This document shows positions 26,975 through 64,000 of a stretch of 64,000 bases of DNA, one piece after another (position 1 is the first letter of the stretch; each line of letters opens with the position of its first letter). Source of the DNA: Octopus vulgaris. Lineage: Eukaryota. The notes under the pieces are model-generated. The model saw only the letters and a list, made by a program, of their open reading frames with translations. It was not told where the DNA came from and ran no database searches. The position numbers were made by a program, and so were the translations under genes. The DNA lies in assembly GCA_951406725.2 (NCBI GenBank), contig OX597816.1:22568001-22632000 (forward strand), given 5' to 3'.

Positions 26975-27541
26975 CTCTTCTACTATAGGCACAAAACCTG
27001 AAATTTGAGTGGAAGGGATTACATCGACCCCCAGCGCTCAACTGATACTTTTTTTTATCTATCCCTAGAGAATGAAAGACAAAGTCGGTCCGGTAGCATT
27101 TGAACTCAGAACGTAAAGACAGATGAAATATCTATTTCTTTACTGCCCACAAGGGGCTAAACATAGAGGGGGCAAACAAGGACAGACAGATTAAGTCGAT
27201 TATATCAACCCCAGTACGTAACTGGTACTTAATTTATCGACCCCGAAAGGATGAAAGGCAAATTCGACCTCGGCGGAATTTGAACTCAGAACGTAAGGCA
27301 GACGAAATACCTATTTCATTACTACTCACAAGGAGCTAAACACAGAGAGGACAAACAAGAACAGACAAACGGATTAAGTCGATTAGATCGACCCCAGTGC
27401 TTAAATGGTACTTAATTTATCGACCCCGTAAGGATGAAAGGCAAAGTCGACCTCGGCGGAATTTGAACCCAGAACGGTACGGCAGACGAACTACCGCTAA
27501 GCATTTCGCCCGGCGCGCTAACGTATCTGCCAGCTCGCCGC
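26975..27541 (-). mobile_element. Family B SINE trimer
   Basis: Three cores joined at GAAATAG|GTATTTC-type junctions, with one head at ~27541. Confidence 0.8.
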
Positions 27542-28885
27542 GTTTCTTCTGTTGACATATAAACCTTATTTACTGTATGTCTAGTATCGTTTTGTTTGCA
27601 TCCAGCCTAGAAGATTAGCATTTAACTGTGATCGTCATGAGAACTTCTAAGACTGACAGAAGAGTGATATCAATAGTGTCATAAACCTGTAAACTAGACC
27701 GAATACCTCCAACAGAAAACAATTCCCCGATAAAAAGACCGAAGAGAATTAAAACTGTAGACGAATTAAGTCTCTTACTTTATTAGGCAACAATGGGATT
27801 TGAACTACTAATGCAAAATCCGGAGCATATTACTGAGGTTATTTTGTTTTCTTCCCAATATACTTCAGCCGTCCATCACATGGGAGTGGTATTTATTCAT
27901 CGACTTTATTTGTATGCTAGTTTTACTACGGCGGTTTTCGGTTAATCTACCTTAAGCTTTCTCTTAGCTTATATTATTTATTTGGGCTTTACTCTGAGTA
28001 AGGGAGAATATAATGATTCAACGTCACTTATACTAAAGTGTTATCATTATATCTAAAACCCTAACTACAGTTATAACGTCATAGAGACATATGCGCATGG
28101 AACGCTACGTCAACGACCATGTATGTTGAATATTTTAATCGCGTCCTTTAAAACGCTATAAGAAACATAATTCAAAGATTACAGAAATGCATATTTATCT
28201 ATGCTCAGTTGAAAAACAAACGTGAAGAGAAACATTTTCTTTTTAATCATTTTTTTATTATAGAAATATAACATTTTATATTTTTTTACAGTAAGAAAGA
28301 TAACTTCGTCGCGGAGAAAAAACGACTATAATTTCCTTAGCTAATTTCTTCTTTCTATCTAATACTTTAATCAACAATCAAAATGGATTTGTGATTAACT
28401 CGGACATGGCATAAATTTTACCGATGCCTCCAAAAGTGTGAGTGACGTGGAGTTATGTGACACCAACGAACACTAAAGTCTCTCCCCAAATCCAGGGTTT
28501 TTATAACTGCTCAACCTGACCAAAAAGAATCGAAATTCAGGACAAACATTCTTTTCGAAACTTCTAGAATCTTTATATGAGCAGTTATATTAACCAATGG
28601 GAAAAAAAAATGAAAATGCTAATTCTTCGGCAAAGACATTACGTCATATTGCCAATTCGCGCCACATTTCAAAATGGCTAAAATGATTATTGCTACATCA
28701 GCCTCTCGCCAGAAAAATTGTTAAAATTTTGCGAAAGGAAATTCGTAACATATTTTTTTTTTATGCAACATTTGAATTAATGGTTACAACATATCAATAT
28801 ATACAATGCATTTATAATTTACATGTTAAACATATGAAATCAGCCTTTCCAATACAGCTTTACATTTAAAATGTTCATATATAGT

Positions 28886-31800
28886 TCATTTCATTTCACT
28901 GGAAATTTTTCTTTTATATATATATAATCCAGGAATATAAACAAAATTTTTGAAAATTCTCAAACAAACTGAGAAACTTTTTTTTGGAAAATGTACAATT
29001 CTGCCACTTCTAGTCTTTTTCACATCTGTAGGTAATTTCAAAATTGACTTTGTTTTTCCATTAACATTGGATTTGTTTCTTTGAATATCATTTTGTTTCA
29101 AGTTATGTTGATATGTATTGCTCACATCTTCATTTTCATGACATGAATGTTGGTCGAAATAAGCTTTTTTTACTCTGTCGACACTGACAATTTCTTTTTT
29201 ACCATTCATCTCCAAAGTCATAGTTTTGTCTCTAACTGACAAGACTTTAAAAGGTCCGGTGTATTTATTTTTCAGTGAATTATGAGCAGCATCGTTACGT
29301 ACAAATACATGTGTCCAAGAATTTATATCAATAGGAACAAAGCTTTTAACATTTTGCAATTTTCTTGTAAAAGAAGGAATATCCGTAAGAAATCTCCTAA
29401 GACGAGTTACATAATCATTAACATCTCCATTAAAAAAATTGGTTACTTCGAACATTTGAGCAGGTAGAGTTAATGTTGTTTCGTACAAAAGTTCAGCAGG
29501 AGAATATTGTACATTTTCTTTAACAGCAGTTCTAATTCCTAATAATACGACCGGTAAGGCCTCTAACCAACTGTTAGAATCAGAATAAGTTCTTAATGAA
29601 GATTTCAACTGCCTATGGAACCTTTCTATCATTCCGTTAGATTGTGGGTGATATGAAGTTGTACGAATTCTATTAATCCCCAACAATTTATTGAATTCTG
29701 CGAACAGGCTAGACTCAAATTGTCTACCACGATCTGTTGTCACTGTATTTGGGATGCCAAATCTCGACATCCAATTGTTAAATAAAGTTTTCGCTATAGT
29801 TACTGCAGATACGTCTTTTATCGGATAAGCCTCCGGCCATCTCGAAATGCGATCGATACACGTCAACAAATATATATTATCCTCACATGGAGTTAAGGGT
29901 CCAAATATATCGATGTGGATATGTTGGAATCTCGCATCTGGATTTGCAAATGTACCTAATGGTGCTTTGATATGACGCTGTACTTTGGATTTTTGACACT
30001 GCATACATGACTTTACCCAAGAACGAATATCTTTATTCATACGAGGCCAAACAAAACGACTTGATATCAACTTCAATGAAGCTTCTATACCTGGATGAGA
30101 TAAATTATGTAAGCTAGAAAAAACATTTTTTCTGTGCCTTTCAGGCACAAATGGTCTCGAAAAGCCTGTAGAAATATCACACCAAATATGTGAATTACAC
30201 GAATGGATCGGCAACATTTTAAATTTTAAAGAAGTTGAATTGGAATTTTTATATAAAGAAAATTCTTTATCTGCAACTTGATCCTTAGACATTTCTTTCA
30301 AATTTATAGTGTTTAATGGATTTAATGCATCTACATTAATTCTAGAAAGTGCATCTGCTGCTGAATTTTCAACACCCTTGATATAACGTATATCCACAGT
30401 AAATTATGAAATAAAATCAAGGTGTCTAATTTCTCTAGGAGAATACTTCTCCGAAGAACTTTTTAACGCATATGTTAATGGTTTATGGTCAATGAATAAA
30501 GTAAATGACCTACCTTCAAGAAGATGTCTGAAATGTTTAATTGACAAATAAGCTGCCAACAATTCTCTGCCGAACATACTGTAATTAGTCTCTGGTGCTT
30601 TGAATTTCTTTGAAAAAAATGCTAATGGTTGCCAGGAATTACAATGAAATTGCTGTAGAACGCCACCGATTCCAACATCGGAAGCATCACATATCAATGA
30701 TAATTCTGCTTGTGGAACCTGATGGTTTAAAAGTGTTGCTTTACACAGTTTCTTTTTAATTTTTCTAAATTCTGTTTCTGTTTCTTTTAAAGTTATGGCT
30801 TCATTTTTTTTCTTTCTATTTTTCAATAGCTCAGTTAAGGGATATAGGGTTTCAGTGACTTTAGGAATAAACTTTCTCTAAAAATTAACTATCCCTAAAA
30901 ATTCTCTGAGCTTCCTTAAATTATTCGGTACAGGAAAGTTTTTTATTGCTTCAACTTTTTCTGGTTATGGTCGAATTCGATCTTTATCTATAAGATGACC
31001 CAGAAAAGATATAATGGGTTCACCATAAACACACTTCGATGGATTTATCACAATGCCAAAATTCGTCAATCTTTCGAAAAAATTTTTAAAATGTTTTTCA
31101 TGTGCTTCTTCTGATGGACTAGCAATGAGAATATCATCTATATAAGCAAATACGAAAGGTAAATTTCTTGTTACTTCGTCCATAAATCTTTGGAAAGTGT
31201 TTGCTGCGTTCCTCAATCCGAAAGGCATGCGAAGAAATTCAAAAAAACCAAATGGAGTGGTAATCGCTGTCTTCGGTATATCATTTTCTGCAACAGGAAT
31301 TTGATTGCATGCTCTGACTAAATCAATTTTTGAAAAAATAGTACAACCACTCAAAGAAGTTGCAAAGTCCATAATGTGGGGTATCGGATATTTGTCTGCT
31401 TTTGTTTTCGCATTAAGTTGCCTGAAGTCTCCACAAGGTCGCCAGTCTATAAGATTTTTCTTTATCATAACTAATGGTGTTGACCAGCTACTACTGGAAG
31501 GACGGATTATACCTAGATCCATCATATGCCGAAATTCTGCCTTAGCCACCTTCAATTTTTCAGGAGATAATCTTCTCGGCTTAGAAAAACTTGGTGGTCC
31601 TTGCGTGACGATGTGATGTTCTACCGAATGCACACACTCAGTATTTAGAGCTAACTGTTTCGTGATATTCGGATAATTCTTCAAAATCCTGTGATATCTA
31701 TTTTCCGAGGACGCTATGAAATGCAATGGACTAACTGTGCTTTTTCTGCATCTCATTCCTTGAATTTTTAATGAAGTTTCTGTGTCTATCAATTTTTGTT

Positions 31801-32128
31801 TTTTAACATCTACCATTAAATGATAGTGTGCCAAATAATCCGCTCCTAATATTGGATATGGTAAATCTGCTACTATGAAAATCCATTTATATTCTCTTCT
31901 TAAATTTATATCTAGAGTTAAGCTAATCTCTCCAAATGTTTGGATTTCAGATTGATTAACTGCTTGAAGAGTCGAATATACAGGTTTGTTTTTTTGTTTT
32001 AAAAGCTTTACAGGCCAAATTGAACAAGCTGCTCCTGTATCAACTAAAAACGTTTCTTTTGAGTTTAAGTCGTAGACGAAAAATACGCGACTTTTAATGA
32101 TGCTATCCACAGATTTCGTCGCATCCAA
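28886..32128 (-). pseudogene. pol: Ty3/Gypsy pol (protease-RT-RNaseH-integrase), one reading frame with three premature stops
   Basis: Protease [10 protein letters not shown]; [38 protein letters not shown]; RNase H CDASDVGIGG, RELLA, DHKPL; integrase HHCC (HNLSH..CMQC), DDE (HIDIFG, TTDRG, GMIERFH) and GPF motif. ORFs 30965-32128, 30404-30826 and 28886-30397 share one frame, with stops at about 30965, 30878 and 30404. Confidence 0.97.
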
Positions 32129-32976
32129 TCTGCGGTTCAGAAGTTTCCCGAATTTCCCTTTTTTTGTTGTTTAGGAAATCAAATGCACAAGGTTTAATAC
32201 ATTTGAATGATTTGTCTCCAAATTTTGCATGGTACCAACATATGGCGTTTCTCTTGAAGATAGGGCTCCTTGATCTCCTGCGCCATCTTGTACTATTTCG
32301 TTGAGCCGAGCGACTGTTTCTTTCGAGTTGCAAACTCTCTATTTTTTTAAATTAATAATTCAAATTGTTCTTTATAACAATCTTTTAATTCCTGTATTTC
32401 ATTCGAAATGGATGGAATTGCATTTACAGATGCTTTTGACGATAATGCCAGAATACCGTCTGCTAAATCTGCCAACTGTTGAATGGAGTTTTGGTTTTTA
32501 ACGGCCGAAAGCAAAGTTTGAGTTTTATATTGCAATTTAGTGAAGAACACTTCTTTGAGATAAGATTCTTCTATCTGCTGATTTCCCAGAAGTTCATTCA
32601 TTCTTCGCAGAAGTTGTGTGGGTTTTTTATTTCCCAATTCTTCATTGTTGAATAACTTCACAAACTCTTTTTGTTTCGAATTTGATGTTCGTTTCAATAT
32701 TTCTTCTTTAATGGAAGAATGAGAAACTGGTTCTATAGGGTTTAGTAGCAAATCTCTAATTTCATTATTTAGAGGTGGAGGTAAATTGCTAAGCATTATA
32801 TTGTATTTCTGTTCTTCATTTGTAATTTTGTTAGCTTTAAAGCTTGCCTCCAGTTGTGCCAACCAAATTACGGTGTCTCCAGTCCACGGAGGACTAGGCA
32901 ATACATTCACAGAAGCTTGTGTGTAATTTCTATCGAAATATGACATCTCAAATTCTTTTAAATTCTGCTCCATCAT
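32103..32976 (-). pseudogene. gag: Ty3/Gypsy gag (CsRn1/Kabuki-like), frameshifted
   Basis: ORF 32347-32976 reads PSPPW..WLAQLEASFKANKITNEEQKY..LGNKKPTQLLRRM..QQLADLADGI. It continues after an A-run frameshift into 32103-32333, which carries the CHCC knuckle CWYHAKFGDKSFKCIKPC typical of CsRn1-clade Gag. Confidence 0.9.
32143..32149 (-). promoter_or_regulatory. Putative -1 ribosomal frameshift heptamer GGGAAAC at the gag-pol junction
   Basis: Minus strand reads aat tcG GGA AAC ttc tga (NSGNF*). A -1 slip gives [11 protein letters not shown], the pol frame. The gag phase requires a 1-bp indel in the upstream A-run. Confidence 0.6.
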
Positions 32977-34382
32977 ATGTATGAATATTTTCTCAACGGA
33001 AAATTTTTTTTTTCGTTATGTTATTAAGCTTTTAACAGCTCAAAATATTTTTATATTGCTAGAAAGTGCAGCTAAAATTTTCTTTCATAAAGTTTCTTCT
33101 TCAGCGTTCTTTTTTGTTTCAACTTACTTTTAAGAATTTGTTAATAAAATATTTATCCAATAATTCTGTAATTTATGTTTATTATATTATTAAATTTTCC
33201 ACCAGTTTGTCGGTGTTTATAATTGTGAGTAGTAAAGAAATAGGCATTTATTCATCGACTTTAGTTGTATGCTAGCTTAAGTTGACCATGGTAAGGTATT
33301 AAATCAGAACGCAACGAGCTACGATGAATAAACATAGGCACATTGTTCGATGCTCTTTCTACTCTCTCGTACAATAAATGAATTTGCCAATTCGCCAGTT
33401 AGTGAGCTAGCAAGAAGTGATAAACTATGATGACGATAATGATACAGGTAATTTTCTTTCACTTCAACACTTCAACAATTACAACGCAGATGCGTCTCAA
33501 AATACTAAACCAAGATATCTTGACGTAAAATTTTCAAGAAAAAAAAAAGGATCGAATATAGTCTGACAGAGAAAATAGGTTTCAATGAGCCACAAATGTG
33601 TAGTCGTAGAGTAATGCTCTAAGAATTATGATCACACATACATAGATGCCCCTACAGCTCGAAAACCTTCTCTGAAAGAGTTAATAGGTTATGTTACCTA
33701 TACGACATAATCAACGTTTAATGGCGCTTTTGCTCCTGTTGCTAAAGCTAAAAACAACGTATACTGAAATATATTTTGTTGAGAAAGTAAGCTTCACTAC
33801 AACAAAGAAAGCATGACGAACATTTATTTTATTTTATATTCTATAATATAATACATATATCTCAAATCCTCATAAAACAAATTTAGACACTGCATTTAAC
33901 TTAATATCGAACGAATGATGTCCAGCAATATATATATATATTTATATATTTATTTATTTATATTTATATATATTCCATTTTGGCGCCATTGAAATATGGC
34001 ATTAAACTATAGACATCATATTACGTATATATTCACAAATATTCAAATAGGCATATTACCATAATTCATTGCTAAATATAATGGGAAAATGTCAGAAAGA
34101 ATTTTTTGAAAAGTTTACAAAATGAAATATTATATTTTAAGATAAATAATTATGCTTGAGACGCTATGAAATTCTAATGCAAAATTTGGCACAATTTCAG
34201 GCAATATTTTCTAATCTAACTGCGCAGTTTTATGCTATGGAATAAAGGTGTTTTCTATACGTCAGTTTTTATAGTTTAGTTAAAGTGAGATCCAAAAACA
34301 CATGTCAAATTTATAGTCAAAAGTTTGGGGCAAAATACTTACTTCACATATACGTATAACACATAGACACAGGAGACACACA

Positions 34383-34554: not shown

Positions 34555-35187
34555 CTTTTCTACTCTATGCACAAGGCCCGAACTTTTGTGGGGAGGGGAA
34601 CAGTCGATTAGATCGAACCCAGTATGCAACTGGTACTTATTTTATTGACCCCGAAAGGATGAAAGGCGAAGTCAACCTCGGCGGAATTTTGAACTCAGAT
34701 GAAATAGCGCTAAACATTTCGCCCGACGTGTTAACGTTTCTTATTTTTTTTATTGCCCACAAGGGGCTAAACATAGAGACAGACGTAAAGACAGGCGAAA
34801 TACCTATTTCTTTACTACCCACAAGGGGCGAAACACCGAGAGGACAAACAAGGATAGACTAAGTCGATTATATCGACCCCAGTGCGTAACTGTTACTTAT
34901 TTAATCGACCCCGAAATGATGAAAGGCAAAGTCGACCTCGGCGGAATTTGAACTCAGAACGTAGCAGCAGACGAAATATCGCTAAGCATTTCTCTCGGTG
35001 TGCTAATATTTCCTATTTCTTTATTGCCCACAAGGGGCTAAACATAGAAGGGACAAACAAGGAGAGACAAAGGGATTAAGTCGATTATATCGACCCCAGT
35101 GCGTTACTGGTACTTAATTTATCGACCCTGAAAGGATGAAAGGCAAAGTCGACCTCGGCGGAATTTGAACTCAGAACGTAACGGCAG
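34555..35187 (-). mobile_element. Family B SINE multimer
   Basis: Three cores plus a partial unit, flanked by AGAGAAAGAAT. Further copies at ~35420-35600(-) and 35620-35940(+). Confidence 0.8.
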
Positions 35188-40167: not shown

Positions 40168-40581
40168 ATTTCTTTTCTACCCACAAGGGGCTAAATATAG
40201 AAGGGACAAACAAGGACGGACAAAGGGATTAAGTCGATTACATCGACCCAGTGCGAAACTGGTACTTTATTTATCGACCCCGTGAGGATGAAAGGTAAAG
40301 TCGACCTCGGCGGAATTTGAACTCAGAACGTAACGACAGACGAAATACCTATTTCTATACTACCCACAAGGGGCTAAATACAGAGAGGACAAACAAGGAC
40401 CGATAAACGGATTATGCCGATTACATCGACCCTAGTGCGTAACTGGTACTTTATTTATCGATCCCGAGATGATGAAAGGCAAAGTCGACCTCGACGGAAT
40501 TTGAACTCAGACCATAACGGCAGACGAAATACTGCTACGCATTTCGCCCGGCGTGCTAACGTTTCTGCCAGCTCGCCGCCT
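40168..40581 (-). mobile_element. Family B SINE dimer
   Basis: Two units; TSD TACCTAAAGTATAT on both sides. Confidence 0.85.
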
Positions 40582-43604: not shown

Positions 43605-44208
43605 AGGTGGTGAGCTGGCAGAAACGTTAGCACCCCGGGCGAAATGCTTTGTGGTATTTCGTCTGCCGCTACGTTCTGAGTTCAAATTCCGCCGAGGTCG
43701 ACTTTGCTTTTCATCCTTTCGGGGTCGATAAATTAAATACCAGTTACGCACTGGGGTCGATATAATCGACTTAATCCGTCTGTCTTTCCTTGTTTTTCCC
43801 CCTCTGTGTTCAGTCACTTGTGGGTAGTAAAGAAATAGGTATTTCGTCTGCTGCTACGTTCTGAGTTCAAATTCCGCCGAGGTCGACCTTGCCTTTCATC
43901 CTTTCAGGCTCGATAAATTAAATACCAGTTACGCACTGGGGTTGATATAATCGACTTAATCCGTCTGTCTTTCCTTGTTTTTCCCCCTCTGTGTTCAGTC
44001 CCTTGTGGGTAGTAAAGAAATAGGTATTTCGTCTGCCGCTACGTTCTGAGTTCAAATTTCGCCGAGGTCGACTATTGCCTTTCATCATTTTGGGGTCGAT
44101 AAATCAAGTACCAGCTACACACTGGGGTCAATGTAATCAACTTAATCCGTTTGTCTGTCCTTGTTTGTTTCCTCTTTGTTTAGCCCTATGTGAGCAATAA
44201 ATAAATAA
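43605..44208 (+). mobile_element. Family B SINE trimer, 185-bp period
   Basis: GGTATTTCGTCTG recurs at 43653, 43838 and 44023. TSD GGAACAGTGA at 43596 and 44209. Confidence 0.9.
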
Positions 44209-44901
44209 GGAACAGTGAAAGCGGTGTCAAGAAAGATAGTGTGTCTTGAACCCATTGCGGCCAGTCGGAGCCTATCTTTTGCAGAACTCATCATCACCGA
44301 TTTCTTCCACAAGAAGCGGAAGATGGTAGACTGTTAGAAATAAATCGGAAGAGTGAGAAAAAAGTCGGTAACAATAAAGGACAACTACGTTATTTATTGA
44401 TCCAGAAAAGATGACTGACATTGTTCATATCAGAAAAAATTAAACTGTTAGCTTAGAGAACTGAGACGGTTATGCAATTATATCTATAACTACCCTGTAA
44501 TAATTCCGTCCATCGGTGGCCTTCGCGTCCATCAAATATAATTTAGCGTTAATTAAATATATGAGCACAATATAGGTATATAAGATTTAGTTTCCTTTCA
44601 CTAATTGTTTGCGTGATTAATTTCGCCCTGTCTCTCCAGTTAGGTTTATTTTAATATTTCCCATTGTATATTTCTGTTTGTCTTTCATTTCATAAAAGAC
44701 AAACAAAGGATTCGTTTTATAAATATGTTTACAAGAATTAATGACTATATCATCCTTAAATATATGACAGCTGAAGGTAAAATATAATATATATATATCA
44801 ATCAGATATTTGTTTATTTCAAACCTTTACGAGTATGTATTGTTCAGTATGTATTTTGCTTGTTTTTCAGTTTGTTATTGTAATACGTGTTCAGACTTAG
44901 A

Positions 44902-45752: not shown

Positions 45753-46178
45753 TCAACGAGGAGTTTGCATATTAAGTTGTGTTTGGAATTTTTCAATAAA
45801 GAGATTCTCCTTGTTAATTCTCTCCTGTGTGGTGATCCCGTCTTTACATTGGTAGAAGGGGAATATATAGAATTTGGGGTTTAAGTCTTTAGCACATGAG
45901 TCTAAGTGGTCACTCAGTGGAATTTGTCGGTATTCCGGGAGATTTATTTGTTCTTTATGCACCGTTACTCGTTTACGTAACGGGAGACTCGTTTGTCCAA
46001 CATAATTATGTTGGCAACCAGCGCATGTGAGAACGTAGATAAGGTTCTCGGAGGAACAGGAGAAGTTAGTCTTGATTTTAAACTTCGTACCTTGTTTGAA
46101 GGTAAATTCAGAGCCTTCAAGTAGAAAGGGGCAGGTACCACAGTTTGAGCGTGCACATTTTTTTACTGTTGGGGGTTT
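45753..46178 (-). pseudogene. Penelope-like element GIY-YIG endonuclease (5'-truncated, frame open)
   Basis: Continuous frame KPPTVKKCARSNCGTCPFLL..NFSCSSENLIYVLTCAGCQHNYVGQTSLPLRKRVTVHKEQI..LSDHL..ERINKENLFIEKFQTQLN. It contains LIY..CxxC..YVG, the conserved R and E, and the CCHH motif. The ORF track shows only its 3' part. Confidence 0.9.
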
Positions 46179-46305
46179 ATGTGCACGCTCAAACTGTGGT
46201 ACCCCACCATTTATTGATCTATATATATATATGTATGTTGTTACGATAATGTTTTACTTGGAAAAATTCTTCTCCTCACTCACACCCTTCTTCTTTCGAT
46301 GTTGC

Positions 46306-62278: not shown

Positions 62279-63229
62279 TTTCTTTATTAGCCACACAGGG
62301 CTGCACACAGATAGAACAAATTACAAGGTAGAGCTTTTCTTTTGAAGGTTTAAAAAAAAAATAAAATAAAATAAAAAAAAAATAAAAAAAAAAAAAGGAA
62401 GGGGGAGTTTCGATCAAAAGGGATCGTAAAAGGAGAGAAAGAGGACAAAAAAAGGGGGGTTAAAAAAAGGGGGAGAGGAAAAAAAAAATTGATCAATAGG
62501 GATCGTTATCACAGAAATGTCAATATGAAGTGTAAAGGGGAGGACAGGTGAGGTTTACCCGTGGAAAGAAAAGCCTACGGAAAAGACCACGGTAACCTCG
62601 GTCAATGAAGTCACATTTTATATTTCTTTTTTTTTTTTTTTTTTTGCAAATAAGCAACTCTCTGTTTTCGATTTCTGGGTTCATAGGACTATGCTCAAGG
62701 TGGCTTCGTCATTCATACGTGCCATTCTTGCTACATTCACCCATCTTTTTTTAAAACATTCGCTAGACAAAACTTGCCTCTCTACTCTCACTTTCCTTTT
62801 CAAGTGGTACTTGAAGAAGTTGATGAGAGATTGACCAGAGAGGAAAGTGTTTGTCTCCAATCCTTTCAGACGCGTCCACCAGATACATTCTTTCGCCATA
62901 GCCACAAGGATGATGAAAATAGCTCTTCCTTCCCGTTTGAAGGAAGGAGGCGTGACAATATTGACGATAGACTCAGCTGATAAACCGACTCGTCCCACAC
63001 GTGACAGCAGTTGTTCGACATAAGCCCACAGGTCGGAAATTGTTGGGCACTGAACGAGTGCGTGCAGAACGGTTTCGTCGCTCTGACCGCATCTCGGGCA
63101 GGTCGGCCCCGTGTTTCTCGAGCCGTGTCTGTAGAGCTTATCCCGAACGGGTAGCGCTTCTCGGTAGCACTGCCAGGCCAGGGATCTCTGGAAGTTGTCC
63201 ATGGGCCCTGGCCCGAAGGTCGTCCTGAA
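62279..63229 (-). mobile_element. 5'-truncated L1/Tx1-type LINE (zf-RVT C-terminus plus 3' UTR) at a (GATA)n
   Basis: LAWQCYREALPVRDKL..CPRCGQSDETVLHALVQC..LW is open to the stop at 62681. T-rich 3' UTR with AATAAA at ~62283-62288. Both flanks read GATAGATATG. Confidence 0.88.
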
Positions 63230-63245
63230 TAGATAGATAGATAGG

Positions 63246-63371
<126 letters not shown>

Positions 63372-64000
63372 TGACGCATCGTACAATAACTGGAAATTTT
63401 TGCGAGACTTCGTCAGATTGTGTTTCTGTGGATCATTTAAATTATAGATACTGTTACCTAATCCTAAACAGTTTTAAATCAATGGTTAGAAGTATTACAC
63501 GAAAGACATTCTCAAATGCATTTCACGTATTAGATATAAAAATCGATTTTAAAGTTGTTTTAAACATTAATATAAACGTATTAAAACATATTACAACTTG
63601 TTACTACGTTGTTTTTTCAGCCATTTGCAATCATTTCTCCACCATTAATCGAGTCCCTTTCCAAATTCTAGTAATTTTATATCTCTTGAGAAAACGATGC
63701 ATTCTTTTTAAGTTTTTGTTTCCGGTATCAGCGGAGAGATACGCTGAATCTGTTAGAAAAATTTTTAGTATTAATTTTCCAATTTAGGTAAGCTTACAAA
63801 TGTCACCAATAGTTCATAAGCAACTTATGCACTATAAACGGTCTTTGTAGAAGTTCAAACATATAAACTGCATTTCGCAAACCATTTAGGTTACTGTATC
63901 TAATATAGACCAGTTGAGAATTAATTTCAGATCATTGAAGTAGAGATCGATAATAAGCTGTATTTGTTTCGCAGCTTAATTCATGCTTGCTATCCATAAT

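Follow-up and report, generated by a model that had tools for sequence, protein, structure and literature searches.

A one-LTR Gypsy retrotransposon between 33-bp direct repeats in Octopus vulgaris: a candidate case of one-ended integration and repair

Background

How did a Gypsy retrotransposon in the genome of Octopus vulgaris come to end in a complete long terminal repeat (LTR) on one side and in a few letters of a short interspersed nuclear element (SINE) on the other, the whole being enclosed by a direct repeat of 33 bp? The copy is located on contig OX597816.1 (GenBank assembly GCA_951406725.2), in a stretch of 64,000 nucleotides (22,568,001 to 22,632,000, forward strand), which is referred to as the window and in which positions are counted from the first letter. 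An earlier note, made from the sequence alone, had read it as an LTR-less element captured by the machinery of a long interspersed nuclear element (LINE). The present analysis favours, by somewhat better than an even chance, another origin, namely that of a one-LTR, 5'-truncated copy of a normal CsRn1-like two-LTR Gypsy family, made by one-ended integration and host repair.

Structure of the copy

The 33-nt direct repeat (33-mer) occupies positions 27888-27920 and 33243-33275 of the plus strand, with two differences between its copies, and its 18-nt core occurs at only two places in the window (chance mean 0.24 at three mismatches). The near-complete gag-pol that the earlier note had seen between these repeats was retrieved as five stop-to-stop pieces of the minus strand, four of which match Pfam models for gag-like proteins, reverse transcriptase (RT), RNase H, and integrase. 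A genome search with positions 27860-28520 as query gave 520 candidates, 40 of which were scored. Besides the window itself, these comprised 39 full matches, starting at query positions 59-83, just past the 33-mer, which is therefore target DNA and no part of the LTR, in agreement with the earlier note. Most of the matches end at position 28697, so that the LTR extends from 28697, where it starts with TGTAGCA, to a U5 terminus at 27921 (777 bp, minus strand); solo LTRs, like the two LTRs of full copies, align across this interval at 88-96%. The window copy thus possesses a whole 3' LTR, and of its description as LTR-less only the absence of a 5' LTR holds. The left 33-mer, which is absent from the other family copies, ends in CTAG, flush with the LTR terminus. 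Two other readings were rejected, namely a short or truncated LTR at 27921-28470 with a polypurine tract at 28480, as the LTR runs to 28697, and the 33-mer as the R region of the LTR (AATAAA on the minus strand), as no other copy carries it.

The internal features are all encoded on the minus strand. Adjoining the LTR, a purine-rich stretch (28698-28712) is, by its position, the likely polypurine tract; the same junction is found in the loci L066, L067, and L112. Towards the 5' end of the element follow a pol piece containing the end of the RNase H region and the integrase (28886-30403; zinc finger, core, and GPF motif; Pfam Integrase_H2C2, 8.6e-20, and rve, 1.5e-12), an RNase H piece (30404-30877; RT_RNaseH_2, 6.1e-29), set off by breaks near 30404 and at 30878-30965, and a piece with protease and RT (30965-32170; RVT_1, 6.1e-30), the DTG and YIDD motifs of which were read in the translation. 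The pol order is thus protease, RT, RNase H, integrase. The translation also contains the Gag CX2HX9CX3C (CHCC) motif (32187-32240), as defined in the available text of PMC2582038, in another frame than the N-terminal gag piece (32347-33015; DUF7041, 4.8e-17), with a break near 32350. The 5' untranslated region (UTR; 33016-33224) is cut at 33224, where it borders on a T-tract.

What lies beyond this cut in an intact copy can be read from 13 other loci that reach the same position. The T-tract comes next in all 13, and a primer-binding site (PBS) and an LTR were seen in ten of them within the 120 nt examined beyond the break, the distance from 33224 to the LTR being 46-71 nt (90 nt in L066). 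The PBS of these sister copies consists of 13 nt corresponding to the 3' end of the tRNA-Trp genes of the genome plus CCA. Hence, the window copy stops 46-71 nt short of its 5' LTR and has lost both PBS and 5' LTR. In the earlier note, the Gypsy part was said to start about 20 nt upstream of a candidate PBS; what was taken for the latter (33200-33207) is a look-alike inside the 5' UTR. The tRNA-Trp genes themselves form a cluster in locus L165 (G000:C6, about 58.38-58.46 Mb), with 16 pattern matches, four of them confirmed by ARAGORN, whereas no tRNA was found in L161, L162, and L164 with ARAGORN and Rfam.

The Gypsy family

A 4-bp target-site duplication (TSD) was found around 28 distinct insertions among the fetched loci, with one mismatch in four of them; four segmental duplicates were counted once and L048, L061, L062, L064, and L065, the TSD of which was unscored, were left out. 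These insertions comprise 23 solo LTRs, four two-LTR copies (L066, L067, L109, and L112), and one copy with two U3 ends (L115). As sister copies carry two LTRs and 4-bp TSDs, and as the SINE tail occurs at the break in none of the 13 other family loci reaching the position of 33224, the alternative of the earlier note, a family of LTR-less elements that borrows a SINE tail, is refuted.

The CHCC gag motif and the tRNA-Trp PBS fit the CsRn1 clade as described in the accessible part of PMC2582038, and the family fits an ordinary two-LTR, CsRn1-like Gypsy family, judged by gag motif, PBS, pol order, and 4-bp TSD. With CsRn1, PwRn1, and AgCR, as that source presents them, it also shares the DTG, YxDD, DAS, and GPF motifs, the order of the pol domains, and a length of about 5.4 kb plus one LTR. 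Unlike those elements, so far as the same text goes, it has an LTR of 777 bp and a U5 end other than CA with two main end points, and the window copy lacks PBS and 5' LTR.

While the U3 end of the family is constant (TGTAGCA), its U5 end varies. On the sense strand, 27 ends fall into three classes, namely ..CCGTAGGAAA (three-T; 14 ends), ..CCGTA (five bases shorter; 10 ends), and ..GGAAAA (four-T; 3 ends). Each class comes with a 4-bp TSD, the two main end points being five bases apart, which suggests lax or alternative 3' processing. LTR ends other than TGCA have been published for plants.

Several family copies are rearranged. Locus L115 (2081-3650, G000:C10) has U3 ends on both sides, due to an internal inversion, and a normal 4-bp TSD, as a rearranged cDNA that still integrated. 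Breaks or inversions in the 5' UTR, at positions equivalent to 33065-33171 of the window, occur in L108, L113, L114, L117, and L120, L113 and L114 being near-identical rearranged copies 12.7 kb apart. A single solo-LTR insertion with identical flanks is present at four places (L016, L019, L050, and L052; once on C8 and three times on C29), representing a segmental duplication. Finally, L067 (G000:C19) has two LTRs that differ by only 0.4% and an internal deletion of 1.9 kb; it is much younger than the window copy.

The left junction

At the left junction, the LTR terminus at 27921 directly abuts CTAG, the end of the 33-mer, without any PBS or tRNA remnant there. The U5 end of the window copy belongs to the four-T class (3/27 family ends). 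As for the target, 13 of the 28 family TSDs belong to the class V-TA-B, compared with a background of 5.8%; when ATAT is left out, 8/23 remain (p 3e-5). CTAG is a member of this class and is also the TSD of L067. Among SINE TSD ends, V-TA-B was found in only one of 26 tallied, versus 13/28 for the Gypsy TSDs (Fisher p 0.0004); the 27th SINE end is not V-TA-B either. Since the terminus belongs to a family class and CTAG to the enriched TSD class, the left junction looks integrase-made, with an LTR terminus that is exact and stands on a 4-mer preferred as target.

The right junction and the SINE tail

On the right, an 18-nt patch (33225-33242, plus strand) separates the element from the second 33-mer. 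The match of this region to the SINE tail, claimed by the earlier note, was borne out, as the 21-mer at 33224-33244 has 15 matches in the window at up to three mismatches and none in 100 shuffles. The SINE is an abundant one and would suggest a cephalopod host. In the full SINE match (33223-33249), the first two letters (TT) also belong to the element, the next 18 nt are exclusively tail, and the last 7 nt coincide with the beginning of the 33-mer; these 7 nt correspond to the read-through of the SINE into its next tandem unit. The patch thus has microhomologies of 2 nt on the element side and 7 nt on the 33-mer side. Short inverted repeats at the element ends were set aside as chance, the tail being absent from sister copies. 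The joint between UTR and tail has one exact match genome-wide, together with two unrelated one-mismatch matches (control, 9), so that no copy besides the one in the window shares it. Beyond the right 33-mer follows unique flank. The earlier note had taken this flank for a decayed SINE, but none of 16 alignments to four SINE regions exceeded shuffles (best score 24; shuffle maxima 25-32), and a genome search, which skips very common words, gave self matches only for both flanks.

Possible templates for the patch are at hand. Within 2 kb on either side of the site, GGTATTT occurs only twice, both times as a SINE tail read-through, at 27304-27330 (minus strand), the tail of a neighbouring SINE array (27000-27541), and at 34797-34823 (minus strand). 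Both match the patch equally closely, so that a DNA template was available. An 'A' common to the patch and the SINE at 27310-27330, present in 7/130 tails, was not used as proof of a local template, the tail at 34803 being equally close and the letter possibly a later change.

For comparison, SINE insertions were surveyed in 631 kb, comprising the window, 47 ten-kb stretches, and 30 loci picked for or holding a SINE. Of 58 head-to-tail copies, 34 were scored and 27 had a non-simple TSD of 8-21 bp, none being longer; LINE TSDs are mostly 7-18 bp according to the part of PMC6007223 available. Eleven of the 27 SINE TSDs start with GG right after the tail, and five with GGTAT, the letters of the read-through, pointing to microhomology-primed insertion. 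The flush contact between tail and 33-mer consequently has the geometry of a real SINE insertion, as the earlier note had it, while the length of 33 bp does not fit one. Some SINEs form arrays, in which a head and tandem units of about 183 nt share one TSD (window positions 27000-27541, 43606-44210, 1417-2020, and 40185-40580).

Another 22 abrupt tail junctions at the same SINE position were found, mostly representing SINE-internal jumps or truncated arrays, two or three of them being stand-alone tails of about 20 nt. No long duplication was detected within 1.5 kb of any of the 22, a reach beyond which that of the window itself lies. In L168, L178, and L184 (about 1504-1524, match orientation), SINE tails of about 20 nt stand alone in non-SINE DNA, either as extremely short insertions or as patches.

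Other sequencing runs

Evidence from other genomes came from assembled contigs only, which are unable to show absence. Contigs of run X1, which may stem from the source sample, cover the left junction, extending 51 nt into the LTR without differences, and the right junction with 30 nt of the element, just under the 31-nt rule; a contig of X2, from another study, covers the left junction. Runs X3 and X8 (organisms B and C) have 18 differences in 406 nt. On their left side, 30 nt of LTR follow the flank and the 33-mer; on the right, tail, 33-mer, and flank are present, as they are in X9. No empty-site joint (27920 to 33276) was present among the 15 of 36 joints listed or among the loose ends listed, nor was a full-length allele among the contigs listed. 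Since organisms B and C carry the same arrangement on both sides, the rearranged state likely predates their split, in line with an LTR difference of 3.5-3.9% to L066, the closest copy measured.

Probable origin by one-ended integration

In the favoured scenario, integrase would have joined the U5 end of the cDNA to the CTAG target. The other cDNA end would have been unusable, perhaps because the minus strand was left incomplete at the A/T tract, short of the PBS, and no second strand transfer took place, which would leave only the U5 end to be used; the layout of the copy is compatible with such an unfinished minus-strand cDNA, as had been proposed. The free minus-strand 3' end at 33224 would then have used a SINE tail as its first template and the target 33 nt to the left of the integrase nick as its second, this double template switch duplicating those 33 nt. 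Another route to this product may start from the nicked target strand, which would be extended by 33 nt, pair through 7 nt with SINE RNA or DNA, and then switch to the element; this part of the process could be the work of a LINE RT. For the patch, two sources come out nearly even, a host polymerase copying nearby SINE DNA and a LINE RT copying SINE RNA.

This anatomy resembles that of aberrant retroviral integration. According to the accessible text of PMC5041404, integrase may insert one end only, whereupon the unjoined 3' end, which is often truncated, uses short homology to prime on DNA close by; more than one piece may be appended, and joining to the target on one side results in a duplication. 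The products described there, from end mutants of avian sarcoma-leukosis virus and from human immunodeficiency virus type 1 (HIV-1) with weak integrase or a low inhibitor dose, combine one normal integrase junction and a truncated other end with an appended host piece with short homology and a duplication longer than the normal TSD. The window copy differs from them in being natural and inherited, a Gypsy retrotransposon in an invertebrate-type genome, with a SINE 3' end as the appended piece and a duplication of only 33 bp, the duplications in that text usually being much larger.

Several points weigh against one-ended integration. Firstly, the patch ends exactly at the true SINE insertion end, which is the case for only 10 of 128 unselected GGTATTT sites (about 8%). 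Secondly, a long flank duplication was found at none of the seven other truncated family copies, so that the family offers no second example, and at none of five LTRs without a scored TSD. Thirdly, the retained end is the non-canonical U5 end of the family (not CA), the canonical U3 end having been lost, and the four-T end is a minority class, one base short of the unprocessed cDNA end. Lastly, the empty allele was not seen among the contigs listed, leaving the TSD unproven although the 33-bp repeat is present, and X3, X8, and X9 lack a listed contig across the UTR-tail junction, so that their ancestors may have carried a longer patch; as contigs omit short links of low depth that run between repeats, this absence is a weak one.

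A combination of two machineries in one insertion is a possible, if doubtful, form of the event. Here, an incompletely synthesised cDNA would have been joined at its U5 end by Gypsy integrase, and its other end would have been closed by a LINE RT that primed SINE RNA on the stranded target end and jumped to the Gypsy minus strand.

Other explanations

The main rival, unlikely on the whole, is a later loss of the 5' LTR. A normal two-LTR insertion with a CTAG TSD would, while heterozygous, have suffered a break removing 5' LTR and PBS, after which the right end, having used the empty homologue as template for 33 nt, was released and end-joined to the element via the SINE patch. The outcome would be identical, including a left junction of the ordinary integrase type, and sister copies are often broken in or near the A/T-rich UTR (L108 at 33171, L113 and L114 at 33094, and L120 at 33123). 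However, a break in an LTR would more often collapse to a solo LTR, the commonest form in this family (23/28), and organisms B and C already have the tail and 33-mer on the right and the LTR on the left, with no full-length allele seen in the contigs.

Wholesale LINE capture, the proposal of the earlier note, appears improbable. Reverse transcription of SINE RNA by a LINE RT would have started at the left edge of the 33-mer; some 20 nt on, the enzyme would have switched to a minus-strand cDNA of the Gypsy element and gone on to copy all of its 5.3 kb, the 33-mer being a TSD of target-primed reverse transcription. The geometry of tail and TSD, the stand-alone tails of about 20 nt at two or three of the 22 abrupt junctions, and a layout equal to minus-strand cDNA are in its favour, and template jumps of LINEs are reported in the parts of PMC2104539 and bioRxiv 2025.02.02.635956 available. 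Also, the HERV-W processed pseudogenes, endogenous retrovirus (ERV) copies made by LINEs (PMC2672075), and the LINE template-switch chimeras of these two sources, as far as their text was at hand, resemble the window copy in that LTR-element sequence lacking its 5' LTR is accompanied by a long direct repeat and, at one of the junctions, by a non-LTR 3' end. By those same excerpts, however, they have RNA-type ends, the 3' LTR being cut just past the poly-A signal at the R end, and their TSDs measure about 11-17 bp. In the window copy, the U3-R-U5 LTR is whole, poly-A and poly-T are absent, the target is CTAG, the 33-bp TSD exceeds the SINE range (0/27 longer), and the element is antisense to the tail; the left junction shows the target bias of integrase and no PBS or tRNA remnant. 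Moreover, the accessible text of bioRxiv 2025.02.02.635956 attributes opposite-orientation chimeras to twin priming and not to template switching.

Nested accidents are quite improbable, as they require three unlikely events, namely a SINE insertion with a TSD beyond 8-21 bp, a Gypsy insertion at the 5' edge of this SINE, and a later deletion of the 5' LTR and all but the last 18 nt of the SINE; the unlisted UTR-tail contig of X3, X8, and X9 would fit a longer SINE in these organisms, but the frequent loss of such links from contigs makes that point weak. Least probable of all is an origin without integrase, in which a double-strand break arising by chance took up unintegrated Gypsy cDNA together with a fragment of a SINE, since, although breaks in mouse zygotes likewise join several retroelement pieces via short microhomologies, the captures described in the available part of PMC4516963 are truncated at both ends, and here a precise LTR terminus stands on a preferred 4-mer.

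Significance

The window copy likely represents a one-off curiosity, working like an aberrant one-ended integration of a member of a CsRn1-like family. A literature search by title and start of abstract, with subscription papers mostly out of reach, gave no natural case with a SINE-tail patch. The locus would show cleanly, in a naturally occurring and inherited Gypsy retrotransposon, the half-integration-plus-repair anatomy known from retroviruses in cell culture, and, if the patch was written from SINE RNA, it would indicate that LINE enzymes can rescue failed insertions of LTR elements. It remains one decayed copy, for which neither a function nor any spread is indicated, and taken alone it alters the picture little. 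A further lesson is one of caution, as a long TSD together with a SINE tail does not prove LINE mobilisation.

Other features of the window

Pfam searches with 22 of the other open reading frames of the window yielded no host gene. A weak GIY-YIG match (1.4e-4, below the cut-off) at 45753-46253 (minus strand) is perhaps a Penelope-like relic, and a zf-RVT match (2.6e-8) at 62681-63412 (minus strand) represents a LINE fragment.

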